A stretch of DNA of 64,000 bases from Actinomycetota bacterium (lineage in GTDB: Bacteria > Actinomycetota > UBA4738 > HRBIN12). The notes beneath the pieces are model-generated. The model ran no database searches. It was given only the letters and a program-made list of their open reading frames with translations, and had not been told where the DNA came from. A program made the position numbers and the translations under genes. Numbering within the stretch: position 1 is the stretch's first letter; the number at the start of each line of letters is the position of its first letter. Shown here in pieces: positions 54,651 through 61,052 of the stretch. The stretch is taken from contig DASSCU010000049.1 in NCBI GenBank assembly GCA_035697485.1, forward strand, positions 15,195 through 79,194, given 5' to 3'.

Positions 54651-57173
54651 CTACACGAGCGTGGCGCCGGCCACGACCACCGTGTCGCCGGTGAGGTCGT
54701 GCTTGTCGAGCACGATCAGGTCCTCGAGCGTCTGACGCATCTGCTCCACGTGGCTCACGAGCACGACGAGCCGACGGGGATCGTTGGCGACGAGGCGGCC
54801 GATGCCGTCCATCGCCCGATCGAGGTGCTCGGGATCGAGGGAGCCGAAGCCCTCGTCGAGGAAGAACGCGTCGAGCCTGCCGCCGCCCCGGGCCACCATC
54901 TCGGCGAGCGCGAGTGCGAGGGCCAGCGAGGCCAGGAAGGTCTCCCCGCCCGACAGGCTGTCCGCCCGCCGCTCGGTGCCCGCCGCGTTCATATCCAGCA
55001 CTTCGAATCGGTCGTCGTCGGTGAAGCGGTAGGCGTTGCCCGTGAGCTCCTCGAAGTGCACGCTGCCGAGCTCGGCGAGCGCCCGGCGTTCCTCTTCCAA
55101 CAAGAAGGCGAGGAACCGCGACGGCTGTAGGTCCGCCACGAGCCGGCTCGCGAGGGCGTGGTCGGTGCGGGCCGCCGTGATGCGGCCGTCGAGGTCGGCG
55201 CCGGCGTCGATCGTTGCGCGCAGGCTCCGCACCTGCTCGTCGGCCGCCCCGTGTTCCGCGGAGGCCGTGGCCAGGGCCATCGTGAGGTCATCGTCCGGCT
55301 CCAGCCCCACACCCTCGAGCAGCGCGCGCATCGTCCCGGTCGCCGCCTGCGACTCCTGCTGTGCCGCGGCCAGCGCGGTCCGGGCATGCTCGTGCCCCTC
55401 GAGCAGGGCTTCACCCGCCTCGACGAACGCCGACCGGACCGCCGTGGTGTCGGTCGCCACCCCGCGAGCCTGCCCGAGCATCCCCCAGACCGAGACGATC
55501 CGGTTCGCGAGCGTGCTCAGGCGGTCACGCCCGTTCTCACCGACTCGCCTGGCGCGATCGAGCGCAGCCCTCGCGTCGGCGGCCGCGGCGTTCGTCCGTT
55601 CCATCGCGGCCGATGCGTCGGCCAGCTCTCGCGTCCGCTCCTCCAGCAGCGCCCTGGGATCACCCTCGCCCAGCCGGTCGACGAGCTCGCTCTGCACCGC
55701 GGAGAGAGCGGCGTCCGCAGCGCGCAGTGCTTCCTCGGCTCGCTCGAGATCCCGCGCGCGCTCCTCCGCACGGTCCCGCCCCGACCCGAGCCTCTCATCG
55801 GCGGCGGTGGCGTCGTTGGCGGCCGACCGGTGCGCGGCCTGGGCCTGCGTCTCGCCGCGGCGTGCGCGATCGAGCGCCTGCTCGGCACCCGCGATCGCCG
55901 GAGCTCGTCCGGCCTTCGGGATCGTCGCGACCGCGCGTTCGCACACGGGACACGGTTGTCCGGCGACCAGCTCGGCGCGCAGCGTGCGAGCCATGTCGGC
56001 GTGACGGGCCGCGTGCAGGGCGCGTTCGGCGTCGGCGACCTTCTCGGCCGCCTCCTCGAGCGAGCGATCGGCGTCCTCGAGCGTCGCGATCGCCCGCTCG
56101 TGCACGGCACCGAGCTGCTCCACCGCCGCGGCGGCCTCGCGGGCCGCGGTGACGGCCTGCTCTCTCGCCAGGGCAGCACGCTCGGCCGCAGCGACGAGGT
56201 GTTCGTGCTCGGTCACGAGCGACGCGAACGCCATCTGGTCCCCGACGCGCTCCGCGACGGCGGCGTGGGCTGCCTCGGCGTCGGCACGGGCGGCCTCGGC
56301 CGCGTCGACGGCCGCTTCCGCCTGCTCGATGGCCGCCGCGGATTCGCCCGCCGCCTCGGTGACCTCATCGATCTCCTCAGAGGTCGGGAGCGATGCCGCG
56401 GCCTCCACGAGCCGGGCTTGCGCGACTTCCGCCTCGCTCGCGCGTGTCGCCGCCTCGCGGGTGGACGCGGCCGCCCGCTCGTACGGCTCCCGGACGGCCT
56501 CGAGCGCGGCGGCCCTCGTCGCCGCCGTCTCGAGGCGCTGCTCGGCGACCTCGAGCTGCGCGCGCGCCGACGCCAGCTGCGACCCCTCGCGGTCGAGCGA
56601 CTCCAGCAGCAGCTGCGCAGCGGTCACGCGTCGCTTCGCGGCCTCGAGCGCCCCGTCGAAGCGTTCGTACCCGAAGACTCCCTTCAGCACCTCGTTGCGT
56701 TCCCTCGGCGTGGCCTTCAGGAAGTCGGCGAACCGGTTCTGCGCGAGCAGCACCGAGCGACAGAACGCAGCGAAGTCCATGCCGAGCAGCCGCTCGACCC
56801 GCTCGCGGACCGGCTTCTCGCCGGCGATCGGCTCGAGCACGACGGCCTCGGTGCGGTCGGCGTCGAGGCGCTGCAGCTGGTGGCCGGACGCCCCCTTGCG
56901 CCGGAGCCCCCGCGCCGCGCGCCACACCTGACCATCGACCTCGAAGCGGAGCTCGACGTGGCATTCGCTCGCGGTCTGGTTGATCAGCGACTTCGTGTCG
57001 CGCTCGAACGTGGGGGTCTTGCCGTAGAGGGCGAACGCGATCGCCTCGAGGATCGAGCTCTTGCCCGCGCCGATCGGTCCGACGACGCCGACGAGGTGCC
57101 GGCCGCGCCAGTCGAACACGGCCTCCTCGCGGTAGGACCGGAACCCCTTCAGGCGCAACTCAAGCGGTCGCAT
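54651..57173 (-). CDS. sbcC: SbcC/Rad50-family ATPase (exonuclease SbcCD ATPase subunit) with zinc hook
   Basis: It has an N-terminal Walker A ([20 protein letters not shown]), a long coiled coil with a central CPVC hook, and a C-terminal signature motif ([17 protein letters not shown]) with Walker B/D-loop ([11 protein letters not shown]). Confidence 0.92.
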
Positions 57174-58335
57174 CGGCGGCTTCCTCGAGCGCCTCTCGGA
57201 ACAGGGCCACGAGCTCGGGGGGCGGGTCCTCGCCGGTCGCGCGGCGTGTGAACTCGACGTAGAGCTCCTCGTCGGTCGGCCTCGCGGCGCCGTGAGGGCG
57301 ATCCGTACGGCGGCCCTCGGGGCGCAGCGCCCGAACGTTCACCAGGTACGGGAACGTCTCGGCCGCCCGGCGGGCGAGGTCGGTGTCGGCGCCCCCGACC
57401 TGCACCGTGAGATCGAGGAAGGGCTCGCCCAGCTCGCCGGCGCGAGATTCGATCTCGCTCCACGTGCCGGTCACGCGCTCGAGCGGCCGTCCGCTCGTGA
57501 TCGGAACCGACTCGATCGTCGCCAGCCGGCCCGGCTCGACGTCGACGACGACGACGCGCTTGCGCTCACCGGCCTCGCCGAAGTCGAGGGAGAGGAGCGA
57601 CCCTGCGTACTCCGCTGGCACCGGCGCGCCCGGCACCGGCTGGGGTGCGTGGATATGCCCCATCGCCACGTACTGCGGCCCCGCGGGGATCGCCTGCGCC
57701 GTGGCCGTATAGGCGGCTCCCATATGCAGCTCACGTTCGCCGCGGGGGGCGCCGGTGTCGACCTTCACGCCGCCCACGAGGAAGTGCCCCATCAGGATCG
57801 GCACCAGCGAGTCGCCCGCGCGCGCCACCAGGGCCTCGTTGTAGGCGGTGGTGACCTTCGCGACGCGCCCCGCGTACTCGCCGTACCACTCACCGGCCTC
57901 GCGCATGAAATCGACGACGCGGCCCTCCCGCAGGAACGGGAAGCAGGCGACGACCGCGTCGACGCCGAGCGACTCGGGTCCGAGCAGGCCGCCGTCGTCG
58001 GGATGCTTGATCGAACCGACGAGGTGCACGCCACGGCCCTGATCGCGCAGCAGCGGTGCGAGCGCCTCGAAGAGGTCGGGGGAGTCGTGGTTGCCCGCGA
58101 CGACGACCACCGGGCGGTGCTCGGCGAGTCGCAGCAGTGCGTCGATGCCGAGCGCGAGCGCCTCGACGGGCGGGATCGGCCGGTCGAACACGTCGCCCGA
58201 GACGAGCACGAGGTCGACGTCTCGCTCGTCGGCGATCGCGATCACCTCGTCGAGCACGGCGCGGAACTCCTGCGTGCGGTCGTGTCGGCCGAGGCGGCGG
58301 CCGATGTGCCAATCCGACGTGTGGAGGATCTTCAT
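57160..58335 (-). CDS. sbcD: SbcD/Mre11-family nuclease (calcineurin-like phosphoesterase)
   Basis: It has MKILHTSDWHIG (motif I), GDVFD (II), GNHD (III) and a His in motif IV (GHIHAPQ). It overlaps the sbcC start by 14 nt. Confidence 0.92.
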   Translation of the reverse strand: MKILHTSDWHIGRRLGRHDRTQEFRAVLDEVIAIADERDVDLVLVSGDVFDRPIPPVEALALGIDALLRLAEHRPVVVVAGNHDSPDLFEALAPLLRDQGRGVHLVGSIKHPDDGGLLGPESLGVDAVVACFPFLREGRVVDFMREAGEWYGEYAGRVAKVTTAYNEALVARAGDSLVPILMGHFLVGGVKVDTGAPRGERELHMGAAYTATAQAIPAGPQYVAMGHIHAPQPVPGAPVPAEYAGSLLSLDFGEAGERKRVVVVDVEPGRLATIESVPITSGRPLERVTGTWSEIESRAGELGEPFLDLTVQVGGADTDLARRAAETFPYLVNVRALRPEGRRTDRPHGAARPTDEELYVEFTRRATGEDPPPELVALFREALEEAADATA

Positions 58336-60096: not shown

Positions 60097-61052
60097 GAGG
60101 CCTCCTGCTGGATCTCGGGCTTCATGACGGCGTGTCGCAGGGCCCTGTACACGAGCCCGCGATCGCCCATGCGGTGTCGCAGCTCGCGCTCGAGGGCGCC
60201 GATCGGGACGAGGTTCTGTGGGGCGCGAGGGTCGACGTGGGGCTCGCTCGCCACGAGCGGCAGCACGGCGGCCGTGCGGTCGGCGATCGCGGAGGCTTCG
60301 TCGCGGGCGAGGTGGCCCGACGTCTCGCATCGCACGATGCCCGTCCAGGAATGCCCGCCCTGCAGCATCGCGAGCCGCAGGTACCAGGAGTAACGCGCGT
60401 ACGGGGTCTGTGCCGCGATGCAGAACATCGGGGATCGCTGGCCGGGCGCGAGCTCGGCGATCACCCCGCCGAGCGGCGGCTCCACGTAGGTCACGCGATG
60501 GGTCTTCACGTACCCGACCGTGGCGTGCTCGCGGATCTTCTTGAGCGGCCCGTCGGCCACGACCGCACACTCGGCCGAGAGAGACTCGGCGCACTCGCCT
60601 TCGGCGTCGCGCATCTTGGAGTGCAGGGCCATCGTCAGCAGGTTCGGATCGTCGCCGGGGGCCCGCGTCGTGCTCACCCCGGGCTCGAGGTCGACGGCGG
60701 GCATCTGCTCGCCGCTGCCACCCGCGAGCACCGCCCACCGCTCGATGCGCACGTCGGTGACCTCGGAGCGGCGTGTCTCGCGGTCCCAGACGACCGCCCC
60801 GACCGCGAACGTGCCGACGAGGCCGGGGGTCGGTCCCTGCTCGGGGTCGTCGAGGGTGAGCCGGGCGTCGATGCGGCGCACGCCGTCGACGAACGCGATG
60901 CGGTCGACCCCGTCGTCGCAGCCCTCGATCGGCGCCCAGTCGTCGGTCTCGACCGACGTGTCGACCGACCCTTCGGCGGGGGAGAGGGCGTCGTCCTGGT
61001 CGAGCGGGGTGCCGTAGTCGGGGTCCCAGCCCTCGACGAAGATGCGCGCCAT
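60093..61052 (-). CDS. NurA-like 5'-3' nuclease domain protein
   Basis: It begins MARIFVEGW at 61052; an alternative is 61082. It has two hhhhDG(S/P)L-type motifs (RIAFVDGVRRI, ECAVVADGPLKKI) and downstream acidic/His residues, consistent with the NurA fold. It lies directly upstream of herA-like in the same operon. Confidence 0.5.
   Translation of the reverse strand: MARIFVEGWDPDYGTPLDQDDALSPAEGSVDTSVETDDWAPIEGCDDGVDRIAFVDGVRRIDARLTLDDPEQGPTPGLVGTFAVGAVVWDRETRRSEVTDVRIERWAVLAGGSGEQMPAVDLEPGVSTTRAPGDDPNLLTMALHSKMRDAEGECAESLSAECAVVADGPLKKIREHATVGYVKTHRVTYVEPPLGGVIAELAPGQRSPMFCIAAQTPYARYSWYLRLAMLQGGHSWTGIVRCETSGHLARDEASAIADRTAAVLPLVASEPHVDPRAPQNLVPIGALERELRHRMGDRGLVYRALRHAVMKPEIQQEAS

Follow-up and report, generated by a model that had tools for sequence, protein, structure and literature searches.

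The window analysed here is a stretch of 64,000 nucleotides (nt) from an Actinomycetota bacterium (GenBank assembly GCA_035697485.1, contig DASSCU010000049.1), and it carries on its minus strand four adjacent genes, nurA, herA, sbcD and sbcC, preceded by a motif typical of actinobacterial DNA-damage promoters. With a probability of about 0.72, these genes constitute a DNA-damage-inducible operon for the processing of broken DNA ends, built from bacterial-type parts. The evidence is provided by the identity of the four proteins, the conservation of their functional residues, the conservation of the cluster and of its junctions in related genomes, and the promoter motif upstream of nurA. The features are listed below.

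nurA: 60093..61052, minus strand, bacterial-type NurA nuclease of 319 amino acids (aa)
herA: 58354..60096, minus strand, bacterial-type HerA, a predicted hexameric DNA translocase/ATPase of 580 aa
sbcD: 57160..58335, minus strand, Mre11-family phosphoesterase of the bacterial SbcD type, 391 aa
sbcC: 54651..57173, minus strand, Rad50-family SMC-like ATPase of the bacterial SbcC type, 840 aa, with a CPVC zinc hook
Promoter: 61060..61081, minus strand, predicted PafBC-type (RecA-independent) DNA-damage promoter, with TGTCGG at -26, a 10-nt spacer and TACGAT at -10

The four genes and their products

The four open reading frames (ORFs), which an earlier note made from the DNA letters alone had proposed as an archaeal-style operon, are present at these positions, and their third-position guanine-plus-cytosine (G+C) content of 0.86-0.93 identifies them as coding frames. 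The chain of junctions described in that note can be read directly from the sequence: the TGA of nurA and the GTG of herA share the tetranucleotide GTGA, with AGGAGG located 4 nt upstream; an 18-nt gap separates the TAG of herA from the ATG of sbcD; and sbcD and sbcC overlap by 14 nt. Base composition is about 71% G+C across the whole window, and the operon is no different from the rest. A mechanically generated ORF list also contains a longer frame, 58354-61074 (906 aa), which is a high-GC read-through of the herA frame and an artefact upstream of 60096; homology and the position of the promoter support GTG at 60096 and ATG at 61052 as the predicted starts of herA and nurA, respectively. Scanning the inside of the operon with the sigma-70 consensus revealed no minus-strand promoter, the sole promoter-like match being on the opposite strand, and the same scan found no convincing terminator within it.

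The product of nurA had been called NurA-like, and a sequence search of the PDB sustained the call, with matches to Deinococcus radiodurans NurA (7f6d_H, E=5e-24; about 30% identity to the Deinococcus protein) and to Thermotoga TM1739 (E=2e-13). An AlphaFold2 model of the protein, with a predicted local distance difference test score (pLDDT) of 82, has the NurA fold, consisting of an RNase-H-like/PIWI-like core with NurA-specific elaborations. Residues D56, K183, R276 and W9 correspond to D53, K201, R309 and W8 of the D. radiodurans enzyme (DrNurA), which mutagenesis defined as the catalytic aspartate and as contacts to phosphate and base, and are invariant in 38 homologues; this mapping takes the PDB chain to carry a 20-residue tag, with which all three mapped identities agree. 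The NurA profile gave no sequence match to archaeal NurA, and the protein has no match to Pfam PF09376 at E<=0.1; the same model does match Deinococcus-type orthologues, weakly for the NurA of Deinococcus maricopensis and for that of a distant locus (L087), and with no such weak flag for the NurA of another (L084).

HerA matches its D. radiodurans counterpart (DrHerA, 7f6d_B) over residues 4-574 with E=1.2e-121 in a phmmer search of the PDB, in agreement with the HerA-like assignment made earlier, and a profile of the bacterial-type HerA family matches DrHerA at 2e-224; identity to the Deinococcus protein is about 40-43%. The same profile reaches archaeal HerA weakly (4d2i, 4e-6; 9x1l, 7e-8). 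No Pfam family is matched at E<=0.1, and the NCBIfam helicase_HerA model NF040819 gives 12 bits, with a cutoff of 970; the Pfam and NCBIfam HerA/DUF87 models are built on archaeal and other clades, and D. maricopensis HerA is likewise without a recorded Pfam match. The profile searches thus returned nothing usable from Pfam or NCBIfam, a silence that might have been read as refuting the NurA and HerA assignments; instead of placing the two proteins in unrelated families, the PDB sequence and fold searches identified both, and it was the sequence search that settled their identity.

Functional residues of HerA are also retained. K166 and T167 of the Walker A motif correspond to K175 and T176 of DrHerA, D204 to the acidic ASCE (additional strand, catalytic E) residue D220, D454 and E455 of the Walker B motif to D487 and E488, and the pore arginines R462 and R519 to R495 and R552, which are needed for translocation. 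The Walker A motif, GISGVATKT (residues 159-167), had been described as deviant, with the suggestion of a different mechanism; the description does not hold, since the motif is identical letter for letter in D. radiodurans HerA. Among 33 diverse bacterial-type members, with identity down to 30%, no variation is seen at G162, A164, K166 and T167 and hardly any at G159 and S161, while D204, D454 and E455 are conserved in at least 90%. DrHerA hydrolyses ATP in a DNA-dependent manner, and its K175 and T176 bind nucleotide and Mg2+ (PMC9960219); GISGVATKT is therefore a hallmark of the bacterial HerA clade, active in DrHerA, and gives no reason to expect another mechanism. Taken together, every D. 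radiodurans NurA or HerA residue proven essential on mutation (Yang et al. 2023, PMC9960219) has a counterpart in the two proteins of the window, and HerA is predicted to form a hexameric ring with DNA-dependent ATPase activity and to bind a NurA dimer.

These searches also expose an annotation gap, as the Pfam models for NurA (PF09376) and HerA/DUF87 and the NCBIfam models miss the bacterial NurA-HerA clade. None of the 120 NurA homologues listed has a Pfam match, and every named one is called "hypothetical protein" or "uncharacterized protein"; the HerA homologues have no Pfam domain either, and many are labelled by NCBI only as "ATP-binding protein". GenBank records do contain the four-gene cluster itself and label its nurA and herA as hypothetical.

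The other two assignments, SbcD and SbcC, are confirmed by family models. SbcD scores 155 bits against NCBIfam TIGR00619 (cutoff 77.65) and 59 bits against Pfam Metallophos (8e-16, above cutoff); its SbcD_C domain, at 24.0 bits, falls marginally below the 24.4-bit cutoff, and the phosphoesterase motifs DWH, GDVFD, GNHD, GH and GHIH are all readable. SbcC exceeds the cutoffs of Pfam AAA_23, SMC_N and SbcC_Walker_B, and its translation contains a Walker A motif, the signature LSGGE, the Walker B motif FFLDEGF and, at mid-protein, the CPVC zinc hook that had been noticed earlier, within ...GQPCPVCER... Its score against TIGR00618, 231 bits, is under the 478-bit cutoff, which is consistent with the short coiled coil of a protein of 840 aa. 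Archaeal models give at most 54 bits for SbcD (Mre11) and at most 78 bits for SbcC (Rad50), the bacterial SbcCD models scoring about three times higher for both proteins.

Conservation and spread of the cluster

Related loci were collected by scanning one genome per species, which yielded 80 loci, all in uncultured Actinomycetota or Acidimicrobiia; their HerA is 74-97% identical. The order nurA-herA-sbcD-sbcC is kept in all 80 as far as each contig reaches, and NurA identity falls to 50% and that of SbcC to 40%; recurrence of the order at such low identities indicates that the arrangement is not due to chance. The junctions are conserved as well: the 4-nt overlap between nurA and herA is found in 54 of 76 loci, a herA-sbcD gap of at most 40 nt in 71 of 75, and the 14-nt overlap between sbcD and sbcC in 61 of 64. 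Seven loci (L021, L025, L031, L032, L033, L040 and L052) have a nurA-herA spacing of about 0.1-3.2 kb, pointing to insertions; the spacings are, in order of size, 94, 353, 443, 775, 795, 893 and 3244 nt. Down to about 75% HerA identity the cluster has the same position and neighbours; beyond that, only the internal order is kept.

Among 1.84 billion representative sequences, bacterial-type HerA forms 343 clusters (50% identity, E<=1e-30), which include Actinomycetota, Cyanobacteria and Chloroflexota; this diversity comes from the search of the 50% representatives and from a profile query, the single-query searches giving only close relatives among the 120 matches listed. The more distant copies are arranged as follows.

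nurA-herA-sbcD-sbcC: locus L087, on a 5-Mb contig, with HerA 39% identical
nurA-herA-sbcD-sbcC: a conjugative plasmid of the cyanobacterium Sphaerospermopsis kisseleviana, with a GC content of 37%
herA-sbcD-sbcC-nurA: an Acidimicrobiales metagenome-assembled genome (MAG; L082), Nonomuraea gerenzanensis, and a linear plasmid of Streptomyces sp. BB1-1-1
nurA-herA alone: Deinococcus maricopensis (L081) and the related locus L084
herA without sbcDC: an Egibacteraceae locus (L083), L085 and L088

Two of these loci deserve a description of their own. On the Streptomyces sp. BB1-1-1 plasmid (L090; NZ_CP134205, 1-6325) the cluster adjoins a gene for an ImmA/IrrE metallopeptidase and a TIGR02680/TIGR02678/DUF2397 set, which we take to be the Wadjet (JetABC) anti-plasmid system; the setting is defence-island-like, unlike the chromosomal context of the window. 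The Egibacteraceae MAG (L083, 8650-11669) has herA with neither nurA nor sbcDC, followed by genes for proteins of 828 aa and 178 aa with no Pfam match, possibly another partner for bacterial-type HerA.

The existence of the second gene order bears on the question of whether the cluster is one unit or two. It might be argued that nurA-herA and sbcDC are independent pairs that are merely adjacent and act on separate substrates with no hand-over between them, SbcCD working for instance on replication-associated hairpins. Each pair can indeed function alone, as do SbcCD in Escherichia coli and NurA-HerA in D. radiodurans, where sbcCD is unlinked and the connection to it has been left open (PMC4663267), and several bacterial-type herA loci are devoid of sbcDC. 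We nevertheless consider this explanation quite improbable. In the herA-sbcD-sbcC-nurA order, sbcDC lies between herA and nurA, so that the pairs are not separable and the four genes represent one unit rather than two neighbouring ones; the linkage extends across Actinomycetota, Cyanobacteria, the L087 lineage and, according to the literature, Deinococcota; and the herA-sbcD gap does not exceed 40 nt in 71 of 75 loci, with no promoter motif found inside the operon. This conserved synteny also backs the suggestion, already made in the earlier note, that the four proteins may work together.

The promoter motif and the role of the operon

Between the stop codon of the upstream gene and the ATG of nurA lie 67 nt, which hold TGTCGG-GGTGCCCGGG-TACGAT, an exact match to the 22-nt PafBC consensus tGTCgg(N10)tA(N3)T. 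This consensus combines the -26 and -10 elements of the actinobacterial DNA-damage regulon that is independent of LexA/RecA (Mueller et al. 2021, PMC8635444; PMC6789036). The -10 hexamer ends 7 nt before the nurA ATG; thus, a leaderless mRNA is predicted, and the spacing also validates the start codon given to nurA in the first reading of the DNA. The pattern TGTCR-N11-TANNNT has three matches in the window, compared with 0.32 expected, and 67 of 72 related loci have GTC-N12-TAN3T beside the start of nurA, as against 0.44% of random 90-nt windows. The spacer between motif and start is 5-9 nt long, with a mode of 7, and the remaining intergenic DNA cannot be aligned. Where herA is the first gene, as in the Acidimicrobiales locus (L082), the motif is found 7 nt before herA instead.

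The second match of the window (45093-45114, plus strand, TGTCGGTCTCCCTGCATACCAT) is located 6 nt before the GTG of a gene for a PD-(D/E)XK (PDDEXK_1) nuclease of 307 aa (45121-46044, plus strand), which probably belongs to the same DNA-damage regulon and would also be leaderless; the mechanical ORF list places its start at 44683, too early by 438 nt. The third match (1724-1745) falls inside a gene for a solute-binding protein, 100 nt from the next start, and was taken as a chance occurrence.

The PafBC regulon of mycobacteria includes the resection enzyme genes adnAB, and the presence of the motif favours a repair role over phage defence. An operon with a mainly anti-phage or anti-plasmid function, in which HerA-NurA would break down linear DNA of foreign origin, starting at its ends, with SbcCD opening those that are protected or form hairpins, seems unlikely, although analogous proposals have been made for HerA-SIR2, HerA-DUF4297, TdpAB and, lately, for archaeal HerA-NurA, the latter in a 2026 study of T. 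kodakarensis (PMC12977600). A fold search with the NurA model showed that TdpB shares the NurA fold, and the plasmid-borne and Wadjet-adjacent copies of the cluster would also suit a defence function. Within the clade of the window, however, the cluster shows stable chromosomal synteny, whereas defence islands are usually patchy; its GC content is uniform; the promoter matches a damage-regulon motif that it has in common with a nuclease gene elsewhere in the window; and nurA-herA mutants of D. radiodurans have recombination and damage phenotypes (PMC4663267). The SIR2-HerA, DUF4297-HerA and TdpAB systems likewise combine a HerA-family hexamer with an effector, but in a single-sequence comparison the similarity is confined to the HerA ATPase core (E=0.004-0.07), the effectors and contexts are others, and none is linked to sbcDC. 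Assignment to a defence system listed by PADLOC was rejected, the matches reflecting generic P-loop or SMC similarity only, with at most 25 bits for HerA.

If the genes do form a damage-inducible end-processing operon, its working may be outlined as follows. Upon damage, PafBC, a transcriptional activator of actinobacteria, would let the housekeeping RNA polymerase use TGTCGG-N10-TACGAT, with a leaderless start at or next to the nurA ATG, as the motif suggests. The four genes would be transcribed on one message, and the overlaps between nurA and herA (GTGA) and between sbcD and sbcC (14 nt) would couple their translation, a proposal derived from the anatomy of the operon and its conservation. 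An SbcD2-SbcC2 complex tethered by the CPVC hook would recognise and cut blocked, hairpin-capped and protein-bound ends, as established for E. coli SbcCD, and could then hand the opened ends over to NurA-HerA. The HerA hexamer would pump the duplex through its pore into the NurA dimer, with degradation of the 5' strand and formation of a 3' tail for RecA, as established for the D. radiodurans complex; this mechanism is applied here because the catalytic, ATPase and pore residues are all conserved.

Several points weigh against such a reading. Many bacterial-type herA genes do not adjoin sbcDC (L081, L084, the Egibacteraceae locus, L085 and L088), which implies that the partnership between NurA-HerA and SbcCD is not obligatory. 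The promoter motif is missing from the copies of the Streptomyces plasmid, Nonomuraea, L087 and the cyanobacterium, as well as from those of Deinococcus, indicating that damage control is lineage-specific. Resection by NurA-HerA is itself debated, the T. kodakarensis study having reported that both strands are cut and suggested an antiviral role (PMC12977600), and nurA and herA mutants of Thermus show other phenotypes (PMC5448004).

Neighbouring DNA

The genes surrounding the operon are ordinary chromosomal genes without a repair signature, which are kept only among the closer relatives.

Lipoprotein gene: 61120-61887, minus strand, the only same-strand upstream neighbour of the operon
Gene for a membrane-anchored coiled-coil protein of 1031 aa: 51493-54588, minus strand, directly downstream of sbcC
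4HBT thioesterase gene: 61751-62461, plus strand
Flavin-dependent oxidoreductase gene: 62564-63646, plus strand

The last two are the real genes opposite a minus-strand ORF of 672 aa upstream of the operon (61829-63847), which is a high-GC artefact. The 1031-aa protein has a membrane anchor at its N terminus, roughly 500 coiled-coil residues and a degenerate histidine-kinase-like tail; its HisKA match is sub-threshold only, and no further Pfam domain was found. Closer relatives have its gene in the same place, 3' of sbcC (37-86% identity), and more distant ones lack it. Between the stop of sbcC and the ATG of this gene lies a spacer filled by a perfect 26-bp tandem duplication (54589-54646; 2.2 copies of GCGCCGACCGCCGCGCCCCGAGCCTG), and a terminator in these 62 nt was not called, as the RNA fold is no better than that of shuffled sequences (z=0.26).

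The composition of the neighbourhood is relevant to a further interpretation, in which HerA would mainly pump DNA during chromosome segregation, cell division or DNA transfer and the nucleases would be accessories. Such a role has been suggested for the FtsK-HerA superfamily, which is related to FtsK, and for Thermus HepA; in Thermus, mutants of hepA are impaired in competence and as DNA donors (PMC5448004). This role appears highly improbable for the HerA of the window, as the gene is closely joined with three genes for nucleases or repair and with a promoter of the damage type, and no division, conjugation or competence genes occur among the genes flanking the operon.

Upstream of the promoter, at a distance of 23 nt, the palindrome CTAGTCT-N5-AGACTAG (61105-61123) overlaps the TAG stop of the lipoprotein gene; it is AT-rich and conspicuous in DNA of 71% GC. 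A second exact copy is present at 40974-40992 and one with a single mismatch at 11668-11686; the former contains a TAG on each strand, where two convergent ORFs of the mechanical list end (40489-40977, plus strand, and 40989-41909, minus strand), neither of which is confirmed as a gene. The three copies with at most two mismatches in the window compare with 0.89 expected, and 7 of 100 shuffles reach three, hence the excess is not significant. In 11 related loci (L001-L008, L011, L017 and L019) the arms are kept at the same position and the centre is variable; the palindrome was also noted in L016, L032 and L043. Constant arms with a variable centre are more suggestive of a protein-binding site or of a signal at gene ends than of a simple hairpin, and it is uncertain whether the palindrome belongs to the operon as an operator or is the end signal of the upstream gene.

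Related systems and significance

The term archaeal-style, used in the earlier note, fits the organisation of the locus, with four adjacent and co-oriented genes on the same strand; it does not fit the components, as HerA and NurA belong to the Deinococcus-type clade and SbcCD is of the bacterial type. The order herA-sbcD-sbcC-nurA of Acidimicrobiales, Streptomyces and Nonomuraea corresponds to that of Sulfolobus, for which an interface between HerA and Mre11 has been reported. The archaeal herA-mre11-rad50-nurA operon also assembles four functionally equivalent genes in one damage-responsive unit (Constantinesco 2004; Hopkins & Paull 2008).

Nor is a bacterial module of this kind unprecedented, as had been implied. 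Bacterial NurA-HerA was characterised earlier in Deinococcus and Thermus, and a nurA-hepA-sbcD-sbcC cluster with the same four genes in the same order was noted in Oceanithermus profundus, where its architecture and function were likened to those of the operon that repairs double-strand breaks in archaea (Blesa et al. 2017, Genes 8:130, PMC5448004); that cluster belongs to a thermophile of the Deinococcota and was mentioned in passing, without a survey, regulatory analysis or experiment. The cyanobacterial and Streptomyces plasmids, Nonomuraea and Acidimicrobiales, listed above, provide additional examples. One of the closest known systems is the NurA-HerA complex of D. radiodurans (PDB 7F6D; Cheng 2015; Yang 2023, PMC9960219), which has the same full-length families, Walker A motif and catalytic, pore and DNA-contact residues. 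The Deinococcus genes also overlap and have the same order, nurA then herA; they differ in that the pair stands alone (L081, L084), with sbcCD elsewhere and no PafBC motif. Mycobacterial AdnAB is a double-strand-break resection machine of Actinomycetota under a promoter of the PafBC type; however, it combines UvrD-like motors with RecB nuclease domains, in place of a ring motor of the FtsK/HerA family and an RNase-H-like nuclease. Three features appear to be new: the wide occurrence of the cluster beyond Deinococcota, its two gene orders and the predicted leaderless promoter of the PafBC type.

A broader hypothesis is possible, although we regard it as rather doubtful: NurA-HerA-SbcCD may be a principal PafBC-controlled double-strand-break resection machine of this large, uncultured Actinomycetota lineage, replacing or working beside AdnAB/RecBCD, and the four-gene cluster, not the nurA-herA pair, may be the ancestral, horizontally mobile unit of the bacterial NurA-HerA family, of which the Deinococcus/Thermus pair would be a reduced form. 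If this were true, it would supply genomic evidence that NurA-HerA works with Mre11-Rad50-type enzymes in repair, a role that is disputed for archaea.

Recent literature treats bacterial herA-nurA as a peculiarity of Deinococcus-Thermus, whereas the pair described here is widespread. It also disputes whether HerA-NurA serves end resection or antiviral DNA destruction (PMC12977600), and the link to SbcCD is left open in D. radiodurans (PMC4663267). The repeated joining of nurA-herA with sbcDC in two orders, together with the PafBC-type promoter in Actinomycetota, is comparative evidence that the pair functions in repair and cooperates with SbcCD.

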